Of a stretch of DNA of 64,000 nucleotides, positions 7,288-64,000 are shown in pieces. The stretch spans positions 5,378 through 69,377 of the forward strand of contig JAHCRF010000001.1 in NCBI GenBank assembly GCA_020148055.1, given 5' to 3'. The notes under the pieces were generated by a model, which was given only the letters and a program-made list of their open reading frames with translations, searched no databases and was not told where the DNA came from. The first letter of the stretch is position 1. Each line of letters begins with the position of its first letter. This stretch comes from Patescibacteria group bacterium. GTDB taxonomy: Bacteria; Patescibacteriota; Minisyncoccia; Minisyncoccales; JAHCRE01. Both the position numbers and the translations under genes were made by a program.

Positions 7288-7588
7288 AATTTAGATTTTA
7301 GATGTTAGATTTATAGATATTAGATAGTAGTTTTTTAAGATTAGCAAAAAATATTTTTAAAGTCAATTTTCAATTCTCTTTATAAAATCTAAGATCCAAT
7401 GCCTAGTATCCAAATTTCACAATCTCTCCCCAGTTTATCAACAGATCTTCTTTTTTTTATTGAATTCTCTCCTCGTTTGACATATGGTATGATTAGATAA
7501 TAGATACTGGGTATTGGAAATAAAAAGACAAGCTAAATAGTAAATTTCGCTCACTAATATCTAATACCTAAAATCCAAAATTTAACTT
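7288..7588. promoter_or_regulatory. candidate chromosomal origin (oriC) / rpmH-dnaA divergent control region
   Basis: AT-rich rpmH-dnaA intergenic region. One DnaA-box-like 9-mer TTATCAACA at 7435-7443 and a weaker TATCCAAAT. Five 7-nt TTAGAT repeats at 7289-7330 and TAGATA repeats at 7493-7506. A second near-consensus box TTATCCCCA lies at 9042-9050, between dnaA and dnaN. Confidence 0.5.
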
Positions 7589-20380: not shown

Positions 20381-20487
20381 CGAATCTACTTTTATTTTAT
20401 ACCAAAAATAAAAAAAAAGCCAAAAGCCTTTTCACTAATAACTAAGAACTATCAACTAATAACTAAAATTGCAAAGCAATTTTCCAG

Positions 20488-21976: not shown

Positions 21977-23443
21977 ATGGAAATTCCCAGAGAAGTAAAA
22001 TTTGTTATTAATGAATTAAAAAAAGCAGGCTTTGAAGCTTATATTGTTGGGGGCTGTGTTAGAGATTTTTTAAGACATGTGGAACCTCAAGATTGGGATG
22101 TAGCGACCAACGCCAAACCTGAAGAAATTGGGGAAATTTTTTTAAGGAGTTTTATCAATAACAAATTTGGGACAGTGACCATTTTAACAGATTCAGAAAA
22201 TCCAAGATTGAAGGAAATTGAGATCACCCCCTACAGAATAGATGAGAAATATACAGATAAACGCCATCCGGATAAAATTTCCTGGGCGAAGACTATTGAA
22301 GAAGATTTGGCTAGGAGAGATTTTACTATCAATGCCATGGCCTTAATGGAAATTAAAAATCAAAAGGCAAAAGTCAAAATTATTGATCTTTTTGGCGGCC
22401 AAAAAGATTTAGAGGAAAAAATCATTCGGGCAGTTGGAGATCCAGAAAAAAGATTTTCAGAGGATGCGCTGCGTATGATGAGGGCGGTAAGATTTGCTAC
22501 TATCTTAGATTTTAAGATTGAAGAAAAAACTACTCAGGCAATTAAAAAAAATTCTTTTTGGCTCCAGGCGATTTCAAAAGAGAGAATAAGAGATGAATTT
22601 TTAAAAATTATTATGACAGATAGAGCAGCTGATGGAGTTGAACTTTTGAGATCACTTCCTCTCTTAAAATACATTGTTCCTGAATTAGGAGAGGGTTATG
22701 GAGTTTCCCAAAATAAACACCACATTTATGATTGCTATGAACATTCTATTTTGTCTTTAAAGTATGCTGCAAAAAGAAATTTTAACAAATATGTTAGATT
22801 GGCTGCTTTATTTCATGATATTGCTAAACCTCGGGTTAAAAGAGGGGAAGGACCTGATGCCACTTTTTATGGCCACGAAATTTTAGGAGCAAAAATGACT
22901 AGCCGGATTTTAAATCGGCTAAAATTTCCAAAGAAAGAGATTGAGAAGATTGCCAAACTTGTTAGATATCACCTTTTTTATTATAATCCTGGAGAAGTTT
23001 CTGAGGCCTCGGTGAGAAGATTAGTCCGTCAAGTTGGACCAGAAAATATGGAAGAGTTATTACAAGTTAGAATGGCAGATCGAATTGGCTCAGGTTGCCC
23101 AAAGGCCGAGCCTTATAAATTAAGACATTTGAGATATCTTATCGAAAAAGTCTCCCAAGATCCGATTTCAGTGAAAATGCTCAAAGTTAATGGAAAGGCG
23201 GTAATGAAAATTTTAGATATTCAACCTGGGCCAAAGATAGGCAATGTTTTAGATATTTTACTGAGCTATGTCTTGGAAGATCCTGAGAAGAATGAAAAAG
23301 GATTTTTAGAAAAAGAAGTTGAAAAATTAGCTAGATTATCTGATGAAGAATTAAAAAATTTAGCTCAAAAAGCTAAAAAAGAAAGAGAAAAAATAGAGAT
23401 CAAAAGAGATGAAATGACAAAGAAAAAATATTGGGTAACATAG
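21977..23443 (+). CDS. cca: CCA-adding enzyme / poly(A) polymerase-family nucleotidyltransferase with HD domain
   Basis: N-terminal GGCVRD nucleotidyltransferase motif; a later HD motif (FHDIAKP); long C-terminal extension. 488 aa. Confidence 0.8.
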   Translation: MEIPREVKFVINELKKAGFEAYIVGGCVRDFLRHVEPQDWDVATNAKPEEIGEIFLRSFINNKFGTVTILTDSENPRLKEIEITPYRIDEKYTDKRHPDKISWAKTIEEDLARRDFTINAMALMEIKNQKAKVKIIDLFGGQKDLEEKIIRAVGDPEKRFSEDALRMMRAVRFATILDFKIEEKTTQAIKKNSFWLQAISKERIRDEFLKIIMTDRAADGVELLRSLPLLKYIVPELGEGYGVSQNKHHIYDCYEHSILSLKYAAKRNFNKYVRLAALFHDIAKPRVKRGEGPDATFYGHEILGAKMTSRILNRLKFPKKEIEKIAKLVRYHLFYYNPGEVSEASVRRLVRQVGPENMEELLQVRMADRIGSGCPKAEPYKLRHLRYLIEKVSQDPISVKMLKVNGKAVMKILDIQPGPKIGNVLDILLSYVLEDPEKNEKGFLEKEVEKLARLSDEELKNLAQKAKKEREKIEIKRDEMTKKKYWVT

Positions 23444-24316: not shown

Positions 24317-24370
24317 TTTTGAGTTTTGGTATTTAAGTTTTGAGTTTGAGCCCAGCTGGGCTGGGCGAAC

Positions 24371-36272: not shown

Positions 36273-38021
36273 ATGCGTGTTGAACCGGGACAATTAAAAG
36301 CCTTTCTTTTAGACGCTGGTTTGGTTACCAAAGAGAAATTCGAGAAGGCTCTAAAAAAAGCTGAAAAGACCGAACAGAAAGTCGGGGATGTTTTAATTTC
36401 TGAAGGTTTGATTACCCAAGAGGAACTAATTAAACTCGAGGCCTATATTTTAGGAGTTCCTTTTGTGAATTTAGAAAAAGAAATCATTTCTCCGGAAGTT
36501 TTAAAGCTTATTCCTGAACCAATTGCCAGATCCCATAATATTGTTGCCTTTAGAAAAAAGGGAAAAACTTTAGAAGTAGCCATGTTGGATCCAGAAGATT
36601 TAAGGATGATTGAGTTTATTAAAAAGACTGCTAACCTTAAAATCCTACCAAGGCTAACTACTCCAGGCTCTATTAAAAATGTTTTGCGTCAATACCAAAA
36701 AACTTTGGAGGCTGAATTTGGCGAAATTATAAGAAAGGAAGCTGGGGAAATAATTCCAATAAAGGAAGAAGAAATAGTGGAGGAAAAAGAGGAACTAAAA
36801 AAAGTAGCCAAGGAATTACCAGTAATTCGGATTGTCGATACCTTGTTAAAACATGCCATTTTACAGAGAGCTTCTGATATTCATATAGAACCAACAGAAA
36901 AAGAAGTAATGATTAGATATCGAATTGATGGAATTTTACATGATGCCATGGTCCTTCCAAAACAAGCTAGCTCAGGAATTGTAGCCAGGATTAAAGTTCT
37001 CTCTGATTTGAAGCTAGATGAACATCGACTCCCCCAAGATGGTCGATTTAAAATTGAAACTGAGGAATATCGCTATTCTCTTCGAGTTTCCATTCTCCCA
37101 GTTTTTGGTGGGGAGAAAATCGTTATGCGCCTTTTACCAGAAGAAGCCAAGGTTCTTACTTTAGAAGGCTTAGGACTAAGAGGAGAAGCTTTAGAAAAAA
37201 TTCTAATTAATTTAAGAAAACCAGCGGGAAAGATTTTGATTACTGGTCCCACCGGCTGTGGAAAGACCACAAGCCTGTATGCTATGCTGGAGATTTTAAA
37301 TACTCCGGCAGTCAATATTTCAACTATTGAAGATCCAATTGAATACCGAATACCCAGAATCAATCAGACTCAGGTTAACCCAAAAATCGGCCTCACTTTT
37401 GCTTCTGGTTTAAGAACTTTAGTCAGACAGGATCCAGACATTATCATGGTTGGAGAAATTAGAGATAATGAAACCGCCGGTTTAGCTATCAATGCTGCCC
37501 TGACCGGACATTTAGTTTTGTCAACTTTGCATACTACCAACGCTGCCGGGGCCGTTCCCAGATTGATTGATATGAAAGCTGAACCATTTTTGATTTCCTC
37601 AACTTTAAATTGTATTTTAGCCCAGAGATTGGTCAGAAAATTTTGTAAAGAAAAAGAAAAATATAATCTATCAGAATCAGAAATAAAAAATTTAGAAAGA
37701 TACTGCAATTTGAATAGAATTTTGCAGATTTTAAAAGAGGAAAAAATTGTTAAAAAAAATCAAACCTTCAAAGATATTGAGTTTTTTCGACCGAAGTCCT
37801 CAAAAGAATGTCCAGAGGGCTACAAAGGTCGAATTGGAATTTTTGAAATTTTACCAATTACTGAAACTATAAAAGAGTTAATTGTTAAGCGGGCTACTTC
37901 GGATCAGATTCAGGCTCAGGCACAGAAAGAGGGGATGAGGACGATGATTGAAGACGGTTTCGTTAAAGCAGCCCAAGGAATAACCAGTATTGAGGAGATA
38001 TTACGAGTCATTATAGAATAA
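36273..38021 (+). CDS. pilB: type IV pilus assembly ATPase PilB (GspE family)
   Basis: N-terminal GSPII_E_N-like domains; Walker A GPTGCGKTT and the GspE Asp/His boxes. 582 aa. Confidence 0.85.
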   Translation: MRVEPGQLKAFLLDAGLVTKEKFEKALKKAEKTEQKVGDVLISEGLITQEELIKLEAYILGVPFVNLEKEIISPEVLKLIPEPIARSHNIVAFRKKGKTLEVAMLDPEDLRMIEFIKKTANLKILPRLTTPGSIKNVLRQYQKTLEAEFGEIIRKEAGEIIPIKEEEIVEEKEELKKVAKELPVIRIVDTLLKHAILQRASDIHIEPTEKEVMIRYRIDGILHDAMVLPKQASSGIVARIKVLSDLKLDEHRLPQDGRFKIETEEYRYSLRVSILPVFGGEKIVMRLLPEEAKVLTLEGLGLRGEALEKILINLRKPAGKILITGPTGCGKTTSLYAMLEILNTPAVNISTIEDPIEYRIPRINQTQVNPKIGLTFASGLRTLVRQDPDIIMVGEIRDNETAGLAINAALTGHLVLSTLHTTNAAGAVPRLIDMKAEPFLISSTLNCILAQRLVRKFCKEKEKYNLSESEIKNLERYCNLNRILQILKEEKIVKKNQTFKDIEFFRPKSSKECPEGYKGRIGIFEILPITETIKELIVKRATSDQIQAQAQKEGMRTMIEDGFVKAAQGITSIEEILRVIIE

Positions 38022-38022
38022 A

Positions 38023-39243
38023 ATGCCAAAGTTTTTCTATACTGCTAAATCTTTTAAAGGAGAAATAAAATCAGGAATTTTAGAAGCCAAAGATGAGCAT
38101 CAGTTAGCTAGAACCCTTCGCCAGGAAGGATATATTTTAATTTCAACAAGTTTAGAAAAAGAGATTGGGAAAGGGAAATTTAAGATTTCCCTTCCTTTTT
38201 TTGGAGGAGTATCCTTGACCGAAAAAATGATGTTTACCAGAAATCTTCGGATAATGATTGCTGCCGGTATATCTCTGCCCCGGGCTTTAGAAACTTTAGC
38301 TTCGCAGTCAAAAAGTAAAAAATTCAAGAAGGCTTTATTAGACGTAGCTGATGAGATTACCAAAGGAAGAAGCTTTTCTGATTCTTTAACTAAATATTCT
38401 GATATTTTCTCCGAACTCTTTATTAGCATGATAAAAGTAGGAGAGGAGGCAGGAACTCTAGAAGAGGTTTTAAAAATTTTAACTAATCAGATGGAAAGAG
38501 AACATGAATTAGAATCTAAAGTTAAAGGTGCGATGATTTATCCGGCGGTTATTATTTTTACTATGATCGGTATTGGAGTTTTAATGCTGATTATGGTTGT
38601 TCCAAGATTGGCTGAGACTTTTGAGGAATTGGCAATCGAGCTTCCTCCGACCACTAAGTTGGTAATTTTCCTTGGTAATTTTTTGGCTGAGAAATGGGCT
38701 TTAGCTGTCTTAATAATTCTCGCCCTTTTAATTTTATTTAGGATAATTTTAAAAACAAAGAGAGGAAAAAGAACAACCGATTTTCTAACTTTAAGAATTC
38801 CTATCATCTCCCCCATTATTAGGAAAACTAATTCAGCCTATACTGTTAGGACCTTAGCTTCTCTTATTACCTCAGGAGTGCCAATTGTCCGGGCTTTGGA
38901 AATTGTCTCGGGAGCCCTGGGAAATATTTACTTTCAAGAAGCAATGGCAGACGCCAGCGAGAAAGTTAGAAAGGGTTCTAAACTTTCCGACGCCTTGAGA
39001 TCCCATGAAGGAGTTTATCCTTCATTAGTTATTCAGATGATTGAGGTAGGGGAAGAAACTGGAGAAACTTCGACTATCCTGGCTAAGCTGGCCGATTTTT
39101 TTGAAGAGGAGGTTACCAATGCTACCAAAAATTTAACGGCAGTTATTGAACCAATCTTAATGCTTCTTATCGGAGGGGCTGTAGGATTCTTTGCAATTTC
39201 AATGATTCAGCCAATATACGGGATGTTAGGAGCAGTAAAGTGA
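38023..39243 (+). CDS. pilC: type IV pilus platform protein PilC (GspF family)
   Basis: Two GspF repeats with three TM segments. 406 aa, immediately downstream of pilB. Confidence 0.85.
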   Translation: MPKFFYTAKSFKGEIKSGILEAKDEHQLARTLRQEGYILISTSLEKEIGKGKFKISLPFFGGVSLTEKMMFTRNLRIMIAAGISLPRALETLASQSKSKKFKKALLDVADEITKGRSFSDSLTKYSDIFSELFISMIKVGEEAGTLEEVLKILTNQMEREHELESKVKGAMIYPAVIIFTMIGIGVLMLIMVVPRLAETFEELAIELPPTTKLVIFLGNFLAEKWALAVLIILALLILFRIILKTKRGKRTTDFLTLRIPIISPIIRKTNSAYTVRTLASLITSGVPIVRALEIVSGALGNIYFQEAMADASEKVRKGSKLSDALRSHEGVYPSLVIQMIEVGEETGETSTILAKLADFFEEEVTNATKNLTAVIEPILMLLIGGAVGFFAISMIQPIYGMLGAVK

Positions 39244-40148
39244 ATTCAAAATTCAAAATTCAAAATTCAAAATTGAATGTCGGGGTTACTCTTGTTGAGT
39301 TAGTGGTGATTATTGGGATTTTAGTTATTTTAGCTCTCATATCTGCCCCGGTCTTCCGTTTTTTTCAAAAAGAGTCAGATTTAAATAATAACACTGAGGA
39401 AATTATCAATACCTTAAGATTTGCTCAAAATAGAACTCTGGCTTCTGAAGGAGCTAGTCAATACGGAGTCTATTTTGATAACACTACCTCTCCCCATCAA
39501 TATACCTTATTTAAGGGCACAGATTTTGCTTCTAGAGATAGTTCTTCTGATGAAATTCATAAATTAGCAAAAGCAGTAGAGTTTTATGAAATTAATTTAA
39601 ATGGAGGAAATGAGTTGGTTTTTGATCGAGTAACGGGGAAAACTAGCCAACCTGGTAATGTTTCTTTAAGATTAAAAGTAGATCTTACAAAAACTAAGAC
39701 TATCTACATTGAGAGTTCTGGTCAGGTGGGGCTGACTATCCCGTCAGTCCCTACTGATGGTCAAGTAGAAGATTCCAGGCATGTTCATTCTGATTTAGGA
39801 TGGAGTATTCAAAACTCCACTGCTTTAAAATTTTCTTTTCCCGATATCCCACAAGTAGAAACCATAGATATGGCTGATTATTTTAATACTGGTAAAACAG
39901 AATTTGATTGGGAAGGAACATTTTCTGTAGGCGGGATCGACCAAATATTCCGAGTTCATACCCATGCTCTTGATGCATTTAATACTCTTCTCTGTATTCA
40001 TCGTAATCGAAACGATGGGAAAAATAACCAAGAAGTAATAATTTATATTGTCGACGGGGGAATAGATAAAGATATCGCCCATTATTTAGCCGATGCAGTA
40101 GATACTGTGGAAAAAGGTTTTTATGTTAATACAATGGAAAGACAATAA
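39240..40148 (+). CDS. type IV pilin-like protein (prepilin N-terminus), 302 aa
   Basis: Leader ...KLNVG then VTLVELVVIIGILVILALI, with Glu at +5 after the putative G cleavage site. The start is ambiguous: GTG 39240 or TTG 39273. Confidence 0.65.
   Translation: MNSKFKIQNSKLNVGVTLVELVVIIGILVILALISAPVFRFFQKESDLNNNTEEIINTLRFAQNRTLASEGASQYGVYFDNTTSPHQYTLFKGTDFASRDSSSDEIHKLAKAVEFYEINLNGGNELVFDRVTGKTSQPGNVSLRLKVDLTKTKTIYIESSGQVGLTIPSVPTDGQVEDSRHVHSDLGWSIQNSTALKFSFPDIPQVETIDMADYFNTGKTEFDWEGTFSVGGIDQIFRVHTHALDAFNTLLCIHRNRNDGKNNQEVIIYIVDGGIDKDIAHYLADAVDTVEKGFYVNTMERQ
39244..39271 (+). repeat. heptanucleotide tandem repeat (ATTCAAA)x4 at the pilC stop / pilin start
   Basis: attcaaa x4 read directly from the sequence, followed by the degenerate unit attgaat. 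It overlaps the first codons of the GTG-initiated pilin ORF. Confidence 0.8.
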
Positions 40149-40608
40149 AAAGGGAATATCAGTCATAGAAATTCTAATAGTTATCGCTATTATTGGTATT
40201 GCTTTGACTAGTCTTTTAGGCGTAGCCGCCTTTTCTTTAAAGGTTTCCGTTTCAATAAAAGAGACCACTCAGGCCAATGCTTTAGCCCAGGAGATAATTG
40301 AGGCAGTCAGAAATTTTCGAGATGGAACAACTTGGGATAGTGATGGTCTAGGAACTTTAACCACCAGCCTTGCTTATTATCCTCAAAAAACAGCCGATAC
40401 TCCTCCAAAATGGACCCTAATTCAGGGCGAAGAAACAATTAATGGTTTCACTCGAAAAGTGATTTTTGCAGATGTTATGAGGGATGCCAGTGATAATATT
40501 GTCGGAACTGGTGGAATAAATGACCCCAATACAAAAAAGGTGACCGTAACTGTTTCCTGGAAAGATAAAAAGGTAGAAATAGTAACCTATTTTACTAACT
40601 GGAAATGA
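40123..40608 (+). CDS. type IV pilin-like protein, 161 aa
   Basis: Leader MLIQWKDNKKG then ISVIEILIVIAIIGIAL (class III signal, E+5). Overlaps the preceding gene by 26 nt. Confidence 0.65.
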   Translation: MLIQWKDNKKGISVIEILIVIAIIGIALTSLLGVAAFSLKVSVSIKETTQANALAQEIIEAVRNFRDGTTWDSDGLGTLTTSLAYYPQKTADTPPKWTLIQGEETINGFTRKVIFADVMRDASDNIVGTGGINDPNTKKVTVTVSWKDKKVEIVTYFTNWK

Positions 40609-41126
40609 TGAAGAAACCACTTCAAAGAAGTTTCACTTTAATGGAAATTTTAGTTTATATTGCAGTTCTTTCTATTGTAATTACGGCTATTGTCTCGTTT
40701 GTTCTCTGGTTTATTCATTCCAATACTAAAACTAAGGCAATGCGAGAAACCTTGGATAATGCAAGAAGAGTTATGGAAATAATGACCTATGAGATCAAAG
40801 AGGCAAGAAGCATTTATGCACCAACTACTACTTCTACTCAACTCTCTTTGGAAACAACAAAATATTTGCCAGAAGGAGAAGAGACAAGCTTCATTGATTT
40901 TTATCTTTGTGATTATCGTCTCTGTCTTAAAAAAGAATCCCGAGATTCAATTGCTTTAACTTCAGATAGTGTGGAAATAAATAATCTGGTTTTTACCCGA
41001 ATTGTCTCTGGAGAAGTCCCTTCTATCCAGATTGATTTAACAATTGATTACAAAAACCCAACTAATCGACCAGAATATCAAGCCTCAGTTGGTTTAAAAT
41101 CAACTGTCTCTTTAAGAGAGTATTAA
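40605..41126 (+). CDS. type IV pseudopilin-like protein, 173 aa
   Basis: MMKKPLQRS then FTLMEILVYIAVLSIV hydrophobic N-terminus with E+5. Ser rather than Gly at -1. Confidence 0.55.
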   Translation: MMKKPLQRSFTLMEILVYIAVLSIVITAIVSFVLWFIHSNTKTKAMRETLDNARRVMEIMTYEIKEARSIYAPTTTSTQLSLETTKYLPEGEETSFIDFYLCDYRLCLKKESRDSIALTSDSVEINNLVFTRIVSGEVPSIQIDLTIDYKNPTNRPEYQASVGLKSTVSLREY

Positions 41127-41127
41127 A

Positions 41128-42936
41128 ATGTTAAATCTAAAAAAACAAAAAGGATTCGCCGCCTTCTTTATAACGATTTTAGTTTTAGTTGTAATGATGG
41201 GTATTGCTATTAGCATTACAGTTTTGAGCTTAGGTGAACATAAAATTTCAAGAAACATTACTAAATCTAACCAGGCCTATTATGTTGCCGAAGCCGGGAT
41301 TGAAGATAGTATTTATCGGATTATAAAAGGAAAAAATTATCAGGCAACTAATAGTCTGGTAGTAGAAGAGGGAACAGCAACTATCAGTATCACTGATGAA
41401 GATAGTTCGAAAGTTATTAAATCTAGCGGTGCAGTTTCTCAGAGGATTAGAAAATTAAGCACCACTCTTACCACTGAGACGATAACCATAGCTTTCCATT
41501 ATGGTGCCCAAGTGGATAGAGGAGGATTACAAATTCAGCCCAACGCTAGAGTGGTTGGAAATGTTTATTCCAACGGAAGCATTATGGGAAGCGGAACTGG
41601 TTTTGATTTCAGCGAAGTTTGTGAAAGTGGTGTTGCCTGTATTACTGGCGATGCCTGGGTGGCTGGAGGGGTAGCTCCTAATCCAGACCAAGAGTGGACT
41701 AGCCAAGATTCTGATTTTTCGTTTGGTTTGAAAATCGGCCCAGTTGATTACCTTGATACTGCCCAGAGCTTCGTTCCTTCTGAGTCAGAAGTATTAAATA
41801 TAGTCAGTCTTTATTTGAAAAAAGTCGGTGAGCCTCCCGATCAGACTGTTAGAATTTTGATTGATAATGGAGGTTCTCCATCTAATACTTCCTTGGCCTC
41901 AGGCACATTAAAAGCTTCAAAAGTGACTTCAAATTACGGCTGGATTGACGTGAGCCTTGATCCTCCGCCGAGCTTAACCGCCGGCCAAACTTATTGGATT
42001 ATGATTGATGTTGCTAGAGATGATGATAATCATTGGATCTGGGGAAAAGATAGCACGGATGGGTACCCCCTTGGAACTGGAAAATATACAAAGGATTGGA
42101 CAAAGTCCGATGCTGTATGGGCAGAGGTCGGCGGTGATTTAAACTTTAAAACCTGGATGGGAGGAATAATTACTTATATGGATGGAACCTGGGTTGGGGT
42201 TAATGCTTATGCTAATACCATTACCGATTCAAATATCACTGCTGATGCTTATTACCAATCCATTGAAAATACTGTTGTTTATGGAACAAGCTATCCTGGA
42301 AGTCCTGACCCACCAACCAAGGATTTACCAATTTCTTATGCTCAAATTCAAGATTGGGAGGCAGCGGCTGAGGCAGGAGGAGTAATTGGGGGAAGTTATA
42401 ATCCTCCTGATGGTTCCTCTCTGGGTCCGATAAAAATAAACGGCAATCTAACTTTCCCAAGTAATGGGACGGTGACGATCGAGGGACCAGTCTGGGTGAC
42501 AGGAAAAATTTTAGCCGAAAATAATGTCACCATTAAACTCAAAGAAGGTTTAACTTCTGGTTATACAATAATTGCCGATAATCCTTCTGACCAGGCAGGT
42601 TTTGGTCAGATAGAGCTTAATAATAATGTGATTACTCAAGATTCTCCCCAAGGTGGCAAACTCCTTTTTATTGCAACAAATAAATCTACTTCTATTGCTA
42701 ATCCATCCATTTGGCTTCATAACAACGTTAATCAAGAATTAGCTCAATCCATTATTTTGAGTCTCCATGGAACAATAAAAGTTGAAAATAATGTTAAATT
42801 TAAAGAAATAACCGGCTATGCAATATATTTGGCAAATAATGCTGAGATTGTTTATGAAATCGGTTTAATCAATGCTGGTTTTTCTTCTGGACCAGGAGGA
42901 GGTTGGGAAGTGACCAATTGGAAAGAAATTGAGTAA
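41128..42936 (+). CDS. large PilX-like minor pilin (602 aa)
   Basis: N-terminus GFAAFFITILVLVVMMGIAISITVLSLGEHKISRNITKSNQAYYVAEAGIED resembles the PilX N-terminal domain, followed by a large extracellular region. Confidence 0.5.
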   Translation: MLNLKKQKGFAAFFITILVLVVMMGIAISITVLSLGEHKISRNITKSNQAYYVAEAGIEDSIYRIIKGKNYQATNSLVVEEGTATISITDEDSSKVIKSSGAVSQRIRKLSTTLTTETITIAFHYGAQVDRGGLQIQPNARVVGNVYSNGSIMGSGTGFDFSEVCESGVACITGDAWVAGGVAPNPDQEWTSQDSDFSFGLKIGPVDYLDTAQSFVPSESEVLNIVSLYLKKVGEPPDQTVRILIDNGGSPSNTSLASGTLKASKVTSNYGWIDVSLDPPPSLTAGQTYWIMIDVARDDDNHWIWGKDSTDGYPLGTGKYTKDWTKSDAVWAEVGGDLNFKTWMGGIITYMDGTWVGVNAYANTITDSNITADAYYQSIENTVVYGTSYPGSPDPPTKDLPISYAQIQDWEAAAEAGGVIGGSYNPPDGSSLGPIKINGNLTFPSNGTVTIEGPVWVTGKILAENNVTIKLKEGLTSGYTIIADNPSDQAGFGQIELNNNVITQDSPQGGKLLFIATNKSTSIANPSIWLHNNVNQELAQSIILSLHGTIKVENNVKFKEITGYAIYLANNAEIVYEIGLINAGFSSGPGGGWEVTNWKEIE

Positions 42937-42960
42937 AAATTTTAAATTCAAAATTTCAAA

Positions 42961-42990
42961 TGTGGCCTAGGGCCACTTTTTATTTTTATT
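42961..42990 (+). terminator. hairpin terminator after the pilX-like gene
   Basis: GTGGCC-TAG-GGCCAC followed by TTTTTATTTTT. Confidence 0.5.
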
Positions 42991-58971: not shown

Positions 58972-61449
58972 ATGGTCAATAAATCACCAAAATTAAAAAA
59001 TGAAATAGGCTATATTAAACCGCGTGAGATTACTGAGGAGATGAAGGAAAGTTATATTGACTATGCTATGTCAGTTATTATCTCTCGGGCTCTACCTGAT
59101 GTCAGAGATGGGATGAAGCCGGTCCATCGTCGGATTTTGTATTCAATGTATGAGATGGGTTTAAGACATGATGCAAAATTTAGGAAGTCAGCAGCTACTG
59201 TCGGTCAGGTAATTGCTGCTTATCATCCTCATGGAGACATTCCAGTTTACGATGCTTTGACTAGAATGGCTCAAGATTTTTCATTAAGATATCCTTTAAT
59301 TAATGGTCAAGGAAATTTTGGTTCAATCGATGGTGACCCTAGTGCTGCCATGAGATACACTGAAGCCAAACTTTCAGAAGTTGGTGAGGAAATGCTAAGA
59401 GATATTGGAAAAGATACGGTTGATTTTGTTGATAATTATGATGGAACCAGAAAAGAACCAGTGGTCTTGCCTTCACCTTTACCCCAACTTCTTTTAAATG
59501 GTTCTCTCGGGATTGCCGTAGGTATGGCAACCAATATTCCTCCTCATAATCTTTCTGAGGTTGCAGATGCCGCAATCTATTTACTCTCGCACTCAAAAGC
59601 TGATACCGAGGATCTCTTTGAATTTGTCAAAGGGCCTGATTTTCCAACCGGTGGGGAAATTTATGGTCAAAAAGAAATAATTACTGCCTATTCCCAAGGG
59701 AAGGGCCCGATTGTTACTCGAGGAAAGACAGAAATTATTCGTGGAGAAGGAGGTAAAACTAAAATTGTAATTACTGAAATTCCCTTTCAGGTTCAAAAAT
59801 CAAATTTAGTTAAGCAATTTGCTAAGTTGGTCCAAGAAAAAAGAGTCAAAGGGATAAAGGATATCAGAGATGAATCTGATAAGGAAGGTCTAAGAATTGT
59901 TATTGACCTTTCTCGAGAGGCCTATCCTCGGAAAATCTTAAACCAACTTTATAAATTCACCGATCTACAGAAAACCTTTCACTTAAATATGTTAGCCCTA
60001 GTTGATGGAATTCAGCCGAGGGTTTTAAGTTTGGCTGATCTTTTAAATTATTATCTTTCTCATCGGAAAAAAGTAATTTTTAGGAGAACCAAATATGATT
60101 TAGAAAGAGCTAAAGAAAGAGCTCATATTTTAAAAGGATTAAATAAGTGTTTAGGAAAGATTGATCAGGTCATTAAAACGATAAAAGCTTCTAAAGATCG
60201 GAAAGAAGCTGAGAAAAATTTAATAAAAAGATTTAAAGTAACCAAGATTCAGGCCTCGGCCATTTTAGAGACGAAGTTATCTGCTTTGGCAAAATTAGAG
60301 AGAAAGAGAATTGAGGAAGAACTTAAAGAAAATTTGACCAAAATTAAAGAATTCAAAAAAATTCTTAAAAGTCCCAAAAAGATAAAGGAAATTATTGAAA
60401 GAGAGTTAAAAGGACTCAAAGAAAAGTTTGCTGGCAAGAGAAAAACAAAGGTGATTTCTAAAAAAATTGAAGAAATAGCCTTGGAAGATTTAATTCCCCA
60501 GGAGGAAACAATCATCACCTTAACTCAGGGTGGTTATATTAAAAGGATAAATCCCAAAAGTTATAAAATTCAGAAAAGAGGAGGTAAAGGAATTTTAGGA
60601 ATGAAGACTTTACAGGAAGATATTGTTGAGCATTTCCTTTTAGCTAAAACTCATGATTCTTTACTTTTCTTTACCGATTCGGGAAAGGTTTTTAAAATCT
60701 TAGTTTATGAAATTCCTGAGGCAACGAGAGTAGCCAGGGGTCGAGGTCTTTTGAATTTTCTGGAAATTTCTTCTCGGGAGAAGGTTTTAACTCTTTTACC
60801 TTTAAGTAAAAAAGATTTAGAGTTGGGGATAAAATATTTAGTAATGATTACTCGAAATGGTATAATTAAAAAAACAGAGATTTCTGAATTTGAGAATGTT
60901 CGGAGATCGGGATTAATTGCCATTTCGCTTAAAAAGGGTGATCTTTTAAAAAAGGTTCAAAAGAGTACGGGGGATGATGGAGTGATTTTGGTAACTAAAA
61001 AAGGCCAATCTATTCGATTTAAAGAAAAAGAGATTAGAGGGATGGGAAGACCGGCTTCTGGAGTAAAAGGAATTAAATTAGGAAAAGAAGATAGGGTAGT
61101 AGGAATGGACATAATAAGGTCAAAGGTCAAAGGTCAAAGGTCAAAGGTCAAAGAACATCTTTTGGTGGTTACGGGAAATGGCTATGGGAAAAGGACGGAT
61201 TTGCGAGAATACCGATTGCAGGGGAGAGGAGGCTTTGGGATTAAAACAGCTAAAATTACTTCAAAGACCGGCGATTTAGTTTTTTCAAAATTATTAACCA
61301 CCGAAGAAGATTTAATTGTAATTTCTCAAAGAGGCAAAGTAATTAGGATTAAAATTGCCTTAATTCCAAAATTCTCACGGATTACCCAAGGAGTGAAAAT
61401 TATGAAATTAGAAGAAGGAGATTGGGTCGCTTCCGCAACCTGTATCTAA
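58972..61449 (+). CDS. gyrA: DNA gyrase subunit A
   Basis: N-terminal GyrA signature (AAMRYTEAKL), active-site region and a C-terminal beta-pinwheel domain. 825 aa. Confidence 0.95.
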   Translation: MVNKSPKLKNEIGYIKPREITEEMKESYIDYAMSVIISRALPDVRDGMKPVHRRILYSMYEMGLRHDAKFRKSAATVGQVIAAYHPHGDIPVYDALTRMAQDFSLRYPLINGQGNFGSIDGDPSAAMRYTEAKLSEVGEEMLRDIGKDTVDFVDNYDGTRKEPVVLPSPLPQLLLNGSLGIAVGMATNIPPHNLSEVADAAIYLLSHSKADTEDLFEFVKGPDFPTGGEIYGQKEIITAYSQGKGPIVTRGKTEIIRGEGGKTKIVITEIPFQVQKSNLVKQFAKLVQEKRVKGIKDIRDESDKEGLRIVIDLSREAYPRKILNQLYKFTDLQKTFHLNMLALVDGIQPRVLSLADLLNYYLSHRKKVIFRRTKYDLERAKERAHILKGLNKCLGKIDQVIKTIKASKDRKEAEKNLIKRFKVTKIQASAILETKLSALAKLERKRIEEELKENLTKIKEFKKILKSPKKIKEIIERELKGLKEKFAGKRKTKVISKKIEEIALEDLIPQEETIITLTQGGYIKRINPKSYKIQKRGGKGILGMKTLQEDIVEHFLLAKTHDSLLFFTDSGKVFKILVYEIPEATRVARGRGLLNFLEISSREKVLTLLPLSKKDLELGIKYLVMITRNGIIKKTEISEFENVRRSGLIAISLKKGDLLKKVQKSTGDDGVILVTKKGQSIRFKEKEIRGMGRPASGVKGIKLGKEDRVVGMDIIRSKVKGQRSKVKEHLLVVTGNGYGKRTDLREYRLQGRGGFGIKTAKITSKTGDLVFSKLLTTEEDLIVISQRGKVIRIKIALIPKFSRITQGVKIMKLEEGDWVASATCI
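61116..61150 (+). repeat. heptanucleotide tandem repeat (AAGGTCA)x5 inside the gyrA coding sequence
   Basis: Five perfect 7-nt units encoding RSKVKGQRSKVK. Confidence 0.8.
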
Positions 61450-62510: not shown

Positions 62511-62580
62511 AATTAAAAAGTGAAACCTAAGATTTAAAAATACAAAGGTCGAGGAAATAATAAACAATAAACAATAAACA

Positions 62581-63036
62581 ATGAATAATATGAGAAAAAT
62601 TATTTCAGTTCTAATCTTAGCTGCTTTGCTTTTACCCCTAGTTGCTTTAGCTCAGATAGAGGTAAAGGAGTGCTGTACTCTTCATAAAACAATTACAGTT
62701 GAGGGAGACACCTGTGCCGAAGGTGATGTAGCAGCTCCTGATGCAGCAGCAGCTGCAGATTGTGCAGGAGCCTACTGTGCAGCTTCAGCAGATGCTTGGG
62801 GAATGTTTTGTCTTTTAAATAGCATTTACCGAGTTACTGACTGGGTCTCTTACATCTTATTTGCTTTTGTTGGAGTGATGATAATTATTGGAGCCTTTAC
62901 AATTGTTACAGCTGGTGGATCGCCCGACAAGGTGTCTTCTGGAAGAAATTACATTGTGTATGCGATCATTGGTTTAGTAGTTGCCTTTTTTGCCAGGGCT
63001 ATTCCTGCTCTTGTCAAGGCAGTGATAGGAATGTAA
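62581..63036 (+). CDS. Cys-rich secreted VirB2/TrbC-like pilin-family protein, paralogue 1
   Basis: Signal peptide ending ALAQ; six-Cys ectodomain; conserved LLNSIYRVTDWVSY; two TM helices separated by TAGGSPDKVSSGRN. Confidence 0.5.
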   Translation: MNNMRKIISVLILAALLLPLVALAQIEVKECCTLHKTITVEGDTCAEGDVAAPDAAAAADCAGAYCAASADAWGMFCLLNSIYRVTDWVSYILFAFVGVMIIIGAFTIVTAGGSPDKVSSGRNYIVYAIIGLVVAFFARAIPALVKAVIGM

Positions 63037-63656
63037 AGAGAGAAAAATTTGGTAAATTTTAACTTCTTGTTCGGAGAGAATAAGAGATTTTGATTGAATT
63101 CGAAATGCAGAGAGTTGAGCAAAATAACTTCCGGCTTTAGAGTCTGCGGTCCAAGAAACAATATGAGCAAAATTATTTTAGTTTTAGCTTTGGTAAGTTT
63201 ATTGAGCCTCTTGCTTTTACCAATGGTAGCCTTGGCTCAGATAGAAATAAAGGAGTGCTGTACTCTTCATAAAACAATTACAGTTGATACGGTTACCTGT
63301 AACGAAGATACTGTGGCAGCTCCTGATGCAGCAGCAGCTGCAGATTGTGCAGGAGCCTACTGTGCAGCTTCAGCAGATGTTTGGGGAATGTTTTGTATTT
63401 TGAATACTATTTACCGAGTTACTGACTGGGTCTCTTACATCTTATTTGCTTTTGTTGGAGTGATGATAATTATTGGAGCCTTTACAATTGTTACAGCTGG
63501 TGGATCGCCCGACAAGGTGTCTTCTGGAAGAAATTACATTGTGTATGCGATCATTGGTTTAGTAGTTGCCTTTTTTGCCAGGGCTATTCCTGCTCTTGTC
63601 AAGGCAGTGATAGGAATGTAAAGAGAGAAAAATTTGGTAAATTTTAACTTTCTATT
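62641..63656 (+). repeat. tandem direct duplication (two ~430-nt copies at a period of about 590 bp) spanning the two Cys-rich pilin-like genes
   Basis: 62722-63068 and 63310-63656 are almost base-for-base identical, including the shared 3' flank TAAAGAGAGAAAAATTTGGTAAATTTTAACTT. The 5' portions are diverged. Confidence 0.7.
63163..63621 (+). CDS. Cys-rich secreted VirB2/TrbC-like pilin-family protein, paralogue 2 (tandem duplicate)
   Basis: C-terminal about 100 aa and the 3' UTR are nearly identical at DNA level to 62581-63068. The N-terminal ectodomain segment differs (DTVTCNEDTVA versus EGDTCAEGDVA). Start placed at ATG 63163 (MSKIILV). Confidence 0.5.
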   Translation: MSKIILVLALVSLLSLLLLPMVALAQIEIKECCTLHKTITVDTVTCNEDTVAAPDAAAAADCAGAYCAASADVWGMFCILNTIYRVTDWVSYILFAFVGVMIIIGAFTIVTAGGSPDKVSSGRNYIVYAIIGLVVAFFARAIPALVKAVIGM

Positions 63657-63860: not shown

Positions 63861-63892
63861 GCAAAAGTCGCCAAAAAGGCGACTTTTAGTTA
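63861..63892 (+). terminator. rho-independent terminator after tRNA-Leu
   Basis: AAAAGTCGCC-AAAAA-GGCGACTTTT followed by AGTT. Confidence 0.5.
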
Positions 63893-64000
63893 TTAGTTTC
63901 TAGTTATTAGTTTTTTATTCTTTCACTTCTATCTTTCTTTTTTTCTCCCTCTCAATTTTAGGTATCCTTATAGTTAAAATTCCTTCTTTAAAAGATGCTT

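Follow-up and report, generated by a model that had tools for sequence, protein, structure and literature searches.

Several surface proteins of bacteria are known to be switched by tandem repeats. In Neisseria, CTCTT pentamer repeats occupy the signal-peptide coding region of Opa and a poly-G tract occupies that of pilC; switching of Opa and PilC has been shown experimentally, copy numbers vary and OFF alleles are common among isolates. Heptanucleotide repeats are also known in such roles, as in Neisseria pglE, in which heptanucleotide phase variation affects pilin glycosylation (PMC7157529), and in Haemophilus influenzae, in which the hmw1A and hmw2A promoters carry 13-38 strain-variable and experimentally characterized copies and an intragenic (AATTTTG)14 array is found (PMC2651432). 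Among long simple repeats, furthermore, heptanucleotides are reported to be the commonest class in many bacteria, and polymerase slippage has been named as their source (Mrazek 2007, as related in PMC4679880 and PMC4692102). These two reports describe the genome-wide arrays of Calothrix/Nostoc, Xanthomonas (GGGAATC) and Beggiatoaceae (TAACTGA) as mostly intergenic and as having no demonstrated function (PMC4679880, PMC4692102). The present analysis concerns a perfect array of four ATTCAAA units at the junction between pilC and the first minor pilin gene of a type IV pilus operon, in a 64,000-nucleotide stretch of DNA from a Patescibacteria group bacterium (contig JAHCRF010000001.1, positions 5,378 to 69,377; the whole stretch is referred to below as the window).

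To our knowledge, type IV pili are nearly universal in Patescibacteria. Cultivated Saccharibacteria use them in host binding, competition and motility (PMC11623550). From a Gracilibacterium, a hypervariable gene of 9-mer repeats is known (PMC6851277), and a limited literature search found no report of simple-repeat phase variation or heptamer arrays in Patescibacteria. The initial annotation of the window had proposed the ATTCAAA array as a slipped-strand phase-variation switch controlling pilin expression. The explanation favored here, with a confidence slightly above even, is that the array is a microsatellite made by slippage and tolerated in a permissive, cleaved leader peptide.

The array, the start codon and the prepilin leader

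The pilC gene ends in ...GCA GTA AAG TGA, and the GTG start codon of the first pilin-like gene (39240..39242, +) overlaps this stop as GTGA. From 39240 to 39284 the sequence consists of GTG A, four copies of ATTCAAA, and ATT GAA TGT CGG G. Tandem Repeats Finder (TRF) delimits the array as AATTCAA x4.57 at 39243..39274 (+), equivalent to ATTCAAA x4 at 39244-39271, with period 7, 4.6 copies, 100% matches and a score of 64. The four perfect units directly after the pilC stop, the GTG at 39240, the in-frame TTG at 39273 and the translation of the leader as VNSKFKIQNSKLNVG followed by VTLVELVV are all as the initial annotation had described them. It might be argued that such a run is a chance low-complexity feature or an assembly artefact without biological meaning, as the genome is A+T-rich (the window has 35% G+C) and short A/T repeats are frequent in the TRF list. 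However, perfect period-7 arrays of at least three copies number three in the window and none in 200 dinucleotide-preserving shuffles of it, none arose in 20 shuffles of 865 kb of related loci (described below), and 0.12 chance matches are expected for the 21-nt array pattern. Because the same (ATTCAAA)x4 was recovered in independent assemblies from other samples, at loci designated L062 (JGI, Ga0114920_10090147, 91% nucleotide identity) and L147 (Logan, SRR25383464, 82.5% identity), the array is not an assembly artefact. The shuffles and the agreement of assemblies from three samples refute the chance or artefact explanation, to which we give negligible weight.

Read from the GTG, the frame gives V/M-NSKFKIQNSKLNVG and then VTLVELVVIIGILVILALISAPV, that is, a hydrophilic leader ending in Gly(-1) (codon 39282-39284), a hydrophobic helix and Glu at +5. 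This is the organization of a type IV prepilin, with ...KLNVG preceding VTLVELVVIIGILVILALISAPV and a prepilin motif of G followed by VTLVELVV. The leader, a class III signal peptide, has 15 codons (39240..39284, +), of which codons 2-11 are supplied by the array, translated through all three frames in turn. The initial annotation had left the choice between the GTG and the in-frame TTG (39273..39275, +; leader Leu12) undecided, and the GTG alternative has prevailed. In L062 the TTG is replaced by TTA, a change that is synonymous in the GTG frame, while the GTGA overlap and the entire leader are retained; GTGA is also retained in L147, and the leader counterparts of the closest relatives are homologous. 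Overlapping starts are the norm in the clade: among 94 related junctions, 43 have a pilin start that overlaps the pilC stop (28 ATGA, 12 TAATG and 3 GTGA). An AGGAG motif lies 9 nt 5' of the GTG, whereas the TTG is preceded by the array alone, with no purine-rich motif, and the NCBI annotation (P0001, 302 aa) uses the same GTG. The TTG was rejected as the true start. The overlap of GTG and pilC stop implies that translation of the two genes is probably coupled. The AGGAG, which lies within pilC, is an exception among the starts inspected in the window: of the others (35878, 36273, 38023, 40123, 41128, 43015, 44221, 58972), most have an A-rich upstream 30 nt with no recognizable Shine-Dalgarno motif.

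When the locus was rebuilt with 0-8 units, only 1, 4 and 7 units joined the GTG to the pilin. With 3 units the frame ends at a TGA overlapping the TTG (TTGA), and with 5 units a stop is encountered 20 nt into the mature coding region. These reconstructions bear out the earlier claim that gain or loss of one unit breaks the frame: as at known contingency loci, the unit is not divisible by three, it lies within an open reading frame (ORF) and a change in unit number alters the frame. Programmed ribosomal frameshifting was dropped upon inspection, as the array, read in the GTG frame, offers no slippery heptamer of the form X XXY YYZ. An internal promoter at the array was likewise dropped, as no sigma-70-like site is found in it and site counts in the operon equal those of shuffles.

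Its AlphaFold model and PDB fold matches identify the mature product (39285..40148, +) as a minor pilin of FimU/GspH-like type to which a C-terminal beta domain has been added. The model has a mean predicted local distance difference test (pLDDT) score of 90.1 and a long N-terminal helix at residues 18-68, and convincing matches in the PDB are limited to the four chains of 4ipu, the FimU of P. aeruginosa (prob 1.00, TM-target 0.68, E=1.5e-3). JGI names for its homologs are FimT or PulG. With the N-terminal methylation models (PF07963 and TIGR02532), the first pilin gave no PF07963 hit, and its NCBIfam matches, to XpsH and ComGD, were weak and sub-threshold. PF07963 is present in several of its homologs, and the miss is probably explained by Val at +1 replacing Phe. 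The protein resembles the FimU/GspH core minor pilins known from type IV pili and from type II secretion systems in its prepilin leader, its N-terminal helix with Glu5 and its FimU-like fold. The position of its gene agrees as well, since it opens the run of four pilin-like genes, arranged H-I-J-K, that comes after pilB and pilC; the four genes are, by their predicted products, the usual H-I-J-K set of core minor pilins. Unlike those pilins, the window protein has 302 residues with the extra C-terminal beta domain and Val instead of Phe at +1, and it lacks a Pfam N_methyl hit and reaches NCBIfam models only below threshold. As a pilin-like protein with a FimU-like fold, encoded in a pilB-pilC-minor-pilin operon, it is a surface determinant of the kind expected at a contingency locus.

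The pilC-pilin junction and period-7 arrays in related genomes

The junction was compared among 60 loci from species-representative genomes, 80 from JGI metagenomes and 9 contigs retrieved through their pilin and PilC proteins. Enrichment was calculated from 112 non-redundant loci comprising 865 kb, with arrays defined as repeats of period 7 (or 14 or 21) spanning at least 21 nt. The closest relatives of the window are uncultivated Patescibacteria named Nealsonbacteria, Paceibacteria or similarly, and the organism that carries the window is itself uncultivated and ultrasmall. The exact PilC protein of the window was found in two contigs only, both from the source assembly, and no other strains of the species were found. 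In ENA the window belongs to ERZ23498930 (ZHAO22-1_SAMN13740702 scaffold_55), and locus L001 has the sequence of the window from 32023 on. Because the nearest relatives are only 89-91% identical at the nucleotide level, they represent different species, and their treatment as strain variants was rejected.

The comparison of repeat number across relatives, which had been suggested with the initial annotation, yields a divided picture: there are 4 units in the window, L062 and L147, while unit number, unit sequence and insertions differ between other species. In L062 (91% identity) the array shows 0/32 differences, against 10/140 upstream and 5/56 downstream, and L147 (82.5% identity) has GTGA and four identical units, its contig ending after the fourth. 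L142 (91% identity) has two units followed by a 52-nt insertion (L142 606-657); its GTG frame runs into a TGA, and an ATG within the insertion reopens the frame to give MQIQKQPYGESLTSFDPAKLNVG followed by VTLVEL. In L145, the closest relative by PilC (92% identity), a TAG stop is followed by five non-coding TTAGATN units and a different coding array, which yields the leader MINIQNPISKIPYQKSSKG followed by FSLVEL. L002 (PilC 86%) has an 8-residue leader, MKSKIKKG, exactly 21 nt or three units shorter than that of the window, and thus represents the one-unit state. L146 and L063 (PilC 86% and 79%) both encode MSSKFKVQSSKFKK from a perfect (GTTCAAA)x5. Because the pilin downstream in L146 is of a different type from that in L063, the shared leader and array travel with pilC. 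Finally, L144 (about 82-84% identity) has a degenerate five-unit version, and L143 (about 82-84% identity) resembles it and has an additional 18-nt in-frame insertion. These comparisons mark the junction as a hot spot for indels and insertions between species, at which the frame is always open.

Leader lengths across the relatives range from 3 to 56 residues. In most relatives the leader has 3-8 residues, e.g. MKKKG before FTLVE, overlaps the pilC stop directly and contains no array. A sizeable minority of relatives have heptanucleotide arrays exactly at the junction, with units that are unrelated to one another. Examples, to which further ones could be added, are GTTCAAA x5 (L063, L146), AATTTTC x4.6-4.7 (L019, L087), AAATCTC x4.1-4.4 (L068, L015), TCAAAAA/TCAAGAA x5 (L004), GAATCAT x4.6 (L033), CAACATT x4.4 (L040), AAGTCGC-like x4.9 (L052) and TTCAAAA x3.4 (L061). 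Arrays are found at the pilC-to-pilin junction in about 17% of the 112 loci, and there are 22 arrays in 6.7 kb of junction versus 64 in the other 858 kb (3.3 vs 0.075 per kb).

All 18 non-redundant array-bearing junctions with a recognizable cleavage motif have an open frame from start codon to cleavage site; out-of-frame alleles accordingly number 0/18, with an upper 95% bound of 19%. Units containing a stop codon (TTAGATN in L145; TAAACCG in L069-L074) are confined to positions 5' of the ATG, and units within leaders are stop-free. Two N-terminally truncated gene calls were considered as hidden OFF alleles and rejected. P0074 has an ordinary in-frame ATG leader that was missed by the gene caller, and P0114 is located at a low-coverage contig end and has a garbled N-terminus; neither has an array.

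Arrays of this class are distributed well beyond the junction. Period 7 accounts for 26 of 35 arrays in the first 619 kb and for 45 of 71 arrays at a TRF score of at least 40 in the 865 kb. Perfect period-7 arrays of at least three copies number 20 in the 865 kb versus 0.0 in shuffles, while perfect arrays at periods 8-12 number 2, 0, 0, 0 and 0, and period 4 is at chance level. Period 7 is thus over-represented relative to neighboring periods. Of the 64 arrays that lie elsewhere than at the junction, 42 occupy intergenic DNA or extend across a gene end, and their usual distance from a start or stop codon is 2-14 nt. The units are diverse, with 41 canonical units among 60 arrays, and are A/T-rich; on the operon strand the arrays are G-poor (G 0.08 vs 0.22 background). 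Within the window, a perfect AAGGTCA x5.4 (61116..61153, +; TRF) lies in frame within gyrA (GyrA 1103.7 bits vs a cut-off of 902), and an AAATCAA-like x4.3 array (22350..22379, +; TRF) lies in frame within a gene whose product matches the NCBIfam CCA tRNA nucleotidyltransferase (1.7e-83, 280.8 bits, slightly under the curated cut-off of 290). Further period-7 arrays flank tRNA genes (20434-20466, 24317-24347, 63886-63913), occupy an intergenic region (7290-7330) and, as an AAACAAT-type array, cover the ATG of a VirB2-like gene (62555-62590). Because arrays of the same kind occur in frame in gyrA and at many non-coding gene boundaries, this architecture is a genome-wide habit and not the mark of a dedicated contingency locus.

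Between assembly pairs that are 97.9-99.96% identical, no differences in array length were found; these pairs include L008/L083 and L025/L136, whose arrays have 9.6 and 10.9 copies, respectively, and L069/L071, with junction arrays. Copy number is also identical across 9% divergence (L062) and 17% divergence (L147, in which the contig ends after the fourth unit), and it changes at the species level only (L002, L142, L145), not among close strains as at contingency loci. Perfect arrays are shared at flank divergences of 9% (window/L062), 17% (window/L147), 23% (L063/L146) and 26% (L019/L087), and all units switch jointly between ATTCAAA and GTTCAAA lineages. Such perfection and joint unit change are the signature of slippage-driven concerted evolution or of selection at the nucleotide level, and unit turnover appears to be faster than point mutation. 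These comparisons set only a low floor for the probable slippage rate, about the per-array point-mutation rate, from which high-frequency switching does not follow. Leader arrays lie tightly near 32 nt (median 32, range 22-40) and never reach the 7-unit state; intergenic arrays extend up to 76 nt.

Several other features of the junctions were observed. Insertions of 18-66 nt, usually in frame, lie within junction arrays of L142 (606-657), L143 (153-170), L101 (4259-4313), L068 (4246-4311) and L007 (6239-6286). Part of the L068 insert (37 nt, hairpin-forming) recurs with 95% identity in L069/L071 at 1083-1119, which suggests a dispersed miniature element landing in arrays; a shared insertion element was rejected, as none of the collected loci contains a further copy of the L142, L143, L101 or L007 insert. 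Another element, conserved, some 110 nt long and bounded by terminal inverted repeats, is found immediately 3' of pilC in Moranbacteria-like loci (L036 6189-6305 and L061 6231-6331, 86% identical to each other; also L034 and L043). It matches no Rfam family and may represent either a structured RNA or a mobile element of miniature type. The Logan contig of L147 begins in a TTAAATG-type array (1-30) and ends after the fourth ATTCAAA unit (1258-1285). Because the same contig also starts within another array, this end is attributed to an assembly break at repeated k-mers, and this simpler cause was preferred to polymorphism of the array. In these genomes, short-read assemblies seem to break at heptanucleotide arrays.

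Some loci with pilC genes 92-97% identical (L088/L098, 92%; L101/L102, 97%) have unrelated sequence immediately 3' of the gene, and the break between L101 and L102/L103/L106 falls at the pilC stop, at about L101 4226. Because L088/L098 and L101/L102 diverge in this manner, and L146/L063 share a leader and differ in pilin, the region formed by the pilC 3' end and the leader has the look of a breakpoint at which pilin cassettes are exchanged by recombination. In L098, about 50-170 nt after the pilC stop, a 16-nt repeat and then an ORF (MDIFRFREFPIYKDARVFRKELKNL...) take the place of the pilin gene; the ORF product presumably resembles the four-helix-bundle proteins of rRNA intervening sequences. 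The spacer between pilB and pilC contains paired arrays in L007 (2989-3016/3031-3060), L082 (597-645/665-695), L065 (2932-2961/2970-2990) and L076 (333-363/394-425). The pair in L007 is reverse-complementary (GGTTTTA vs AAAACCT), and those in L082 and L065 are partly complementary only; paired spacer arrays could form long hairpins in the transcript.

A probable tolerated microsatellite or a possible programmed switch

According to the favored explanation, the ATTCAAA array would be one member of the large population of arrays accumulating at gene boundaries in this Nealsonbacteria/Paceibacteria-like clade of Patescibacteria. Because the pilin start overlaps the pilC stop as GTGA, an array expanding at this boundary would become translated, in three frames in turn, into a short hydrophilic leader, extending it from 8 residues, as in L002, to 15. 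Prepilin peptidase presumably removes this leader, which may tolerate nearly any stop-free, lysine-containing sequence, so that the array would survive at any length that preserves the frame (1, 4 or 7 units). Slippage would keep the units identical over long evolutionary times, and its occasional outcomes would be in-frame jumps, array-wide changes of unit sequence and a site where small insertions can land. If one or two units were gained or lost by slippage, the result would be a null allele of the FimU-like minor pilin, a protein that is part of a complex thought to prime pilus assembly. Such null alleles would be purged by selection, apparently, and not kept as an OFF phase.

Several results weigh against mere tolerance. 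Arrays are enriched 44-fold at the junction (Poisson p about 1e-28), and still ~7-fold if all background arrays are assumed to lie in the 10% of DNA that is non-coding. They are also 9x commoner in first pilin leaders (14/94) than in other pilin leaders (2/107; p=0.001), which mostly overlap the preceding gene, and this excess could reflect selection for the array instead of its toleration. Under independent neutral evolution, the probability of no change in the shared perfect arrays is 0.07 for window/L062, 0.005 for window/L147, 1e-4 for L063/L146 and 6e-5 for L019/L087, and something therefore keeps the arrays pure over 9-26% divergence. Homogenization in frame would need either three-unit slips or tolerated out-of-frame intermediates, the latter being expected of a phase-variable locus. 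Furthermore, minority OFF alleles cannot be seen in consensus assemblies.

A programmed ON/OFF switch at the pilin leader is possible. Under this alternative, to which we give limited credence, a reversible one-unit slip would switch the FimU-like pilin, and hence pilus priming, in a fraction of the cells, a form of bet-hedging by the population with respect to host attachment, phage exposure or DNA uptake. The placement of a unit that is not a multiple of three in the leader of a surface-structure gene, with only 1, 4 and 7 units in frame, is what a contingency locus would show, and heptanucleotide phase variation is known from Neisseria pglE and H. influenzae hmw1A/2A. The strong enrichment at the junction across the clade, with unrelated units, suggests repeated independent origin, and the concerted change of all units (ATTCAAA vs GTTCAAA) with perfection over deep divergence fits as well. 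In-frame states of 1 (L002) and 4 units are both found among close relatives, and in the 3-unit state the TTGA could permit leaky re-initiation. However, the array has 4 units only, its copy number is unchanged at 9% and 17% divergence, out-of-frame alleles are absent from the 18 junctions that have a pilin motif, and near-identical strain pairs have no length polymorphism, even in arrays of 9.6-10.9 units. A longer perfect array lies within the essential gene gyrA, leader arrays cluster at about 32 nt without reaching 7 units, and the pilB-pilC junction, at which a frameshift would be of no consequence, has arrays just as often (10/107 vs 14/94 in the first pilin leader; Fisher p=0.28). The form of a frameshift-capable locus and its lability between species have therefore held up from the initial annotation, while ON and OFF alleles have not been found together in nature. 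The label of classic contingency architecture fits poorly with 4 copies that are invariant in lineages diverged by 9% and 17% and with the arrays in gyrA and at non-coding boundaries. The broader proposition that leader arrays of first minor pilins are selected contingency loci that switch type IV pilus priming in episymbiotic Patescibacteria, which we regard as rather doubtful, would explain the 44-fold enrichment, the independent origins with unrelated units and the perfect homogeneity.

It is also conceivable that the heptad periodicity itself functions at the RNA or DNA level, whether as a G-poor unstructured stretch right behind the start codon, aiding coupled translation in a genome with few Shine-Dalgarno sites, as a row of sites for a heptamer-reading protein, such as a cold-shock-domain protein, or through a repetitive lysine-rich leader that serves membrane insertion or recognition by the peptidase. 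Conservation at the nucleotide level (0/32 changes in L062 against the flanking differences given above, and a perfect array in L147) is in line with such a function, as are the low G content of the operon strand, the scarcity of Shine-Dalgarno motifs in the window and the narrow length of leader arrays. CspB reportedly binds direct repeats of heptamers, with each heptamer taking up one protein (PMC4679880). The 41 canonical units among 60 arrays share no motif, however, and most relatives have 3-8-residue leaders with no array. Predicted RNA structure at 39190-39330 is no better than that of shuffles (z=0.04), and L145, with a PilC 92% identical, has wholly different arrays, while the L142 array is interrupted. 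This explanation is considered improbable.

Whichever explanation applies, the arrays have practical consequences: start codons and leaders of pilins are easily miscalled in annotation even if no switching occurs, and the breaking of short-read assemblies is relevant to binning and assembly. The findings also touch upon the old question of why period 7 is favored among bacterial tandem repeats. Should slippage of the arrays be frequent enough, host attachment in these regulator-poor organisms would be under a simple and heritable ON/OFF control. A contingency locus here, if real, would be the first described case of simple-repeat phase variation in the Candidate Phyla Radiation, acting upon the organelle with which these cells hold their hosts.

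Genomic setting and comparison with described systems

The operon extends over 36273-42936 and consists of pilB, pilC and four pilin-like genes (39240-40148, 40123-40608, 40605-41126 and 41128-42936). The pilB-type assembly ATPase (36273..38021, +) was identified by Pfam T2SSE (E=1.9e-124) plus MshEN, and the pilC-type platform protein (38023..39243, +; TGA stop 39241-39243) by Pfam T2SSF (E=5.7e-61). The second minor pilin (40123..40608, +) is PilV/GspI-like, with a Pfam N_methyl match and a TIGR02523 PilV match (6.9e-7) under the curated cut-off. The third (40605..41126, +) is GspJ/ComGF-like, with a Pfam N_methyl match and weak GspJ and ComGF matches, and the last gene encodes a large PilX-like tip pilin (41128..42936, +; Pfam PilX_N 5e-8). 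A terminator-like hairpin, GTGGCCTAGGGCCAC, with a T-run (42962..42976, +; consensus scan) closes the operon, and pilM, pilN and a pilO-like gene come after it.

Between the PilX-like stop and this hairpin lies a degenerate period-7 stretch (42936..42961, +; TRF, 73% matches, 3.7 copies). The initial annotation had pointed to a related motif here, at 42944, but the stretch does not match the array even when 3 mismatches over 21 nt are allowed, and it was rejected as a second copy. Some other period-7 arrays in the window adjoin terminators. The gene at 62555-63036 encodes a small Cys-containing membrane protein with weak similarity to VirB2/TrbC-like conjugative pilins (NCBIfam E=0.007), and a close paralog lies just downstream (63094-63621); the AAACAAT-type array sets a GAGG motif about 27 nt from the start codon of the former. 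An Rfam scan of the window found tRNAs only.

Among described systems, Opa and Neisseria pilC share with the window locus a non-triplet repeat in the cleaved leader of a surface protein, in which changes in repeat number alter the frame and leave the mature protein unaltered. In contrast to them, the window has 4 units, no copy-number variation in the closest lineages and no OFF allele; its leader belongs to the class III (prepilin) signals, and it comes from an uncultivated Patescibacterium. The heptanucleotide systems hmw1A/2A, (AATTTTG)14 and pglE have the 7-nt unit and surface or adhesion functions in common with it, and the intragenic cases act by frameshift. At 4.6 copies, invariant in the available lineages, the window array is above the permissive threshold of an H. 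influenzae survey (at least 3 heptamer units), but far under the 13-38 copies of hmw1A/2A (PMC2651432). The genome-wide heptamer arrays of other bacteria resemble those described here in the over-representation of period 7, copy numbers of 2-11, mostly intergenic positions near start and stop codons, inverted pairs, variation of length and sequence between related species, and slippage as the proposed source. They differ in having one or a few dominant motifs, whereas the Patescibacteria arrays comprise 41 canonical units among 60 arrays, are A/T-rich and G-poor, and are in some cases translated, in the prepilin leader and in loops of GyrA and the CCA-adding enzyme.

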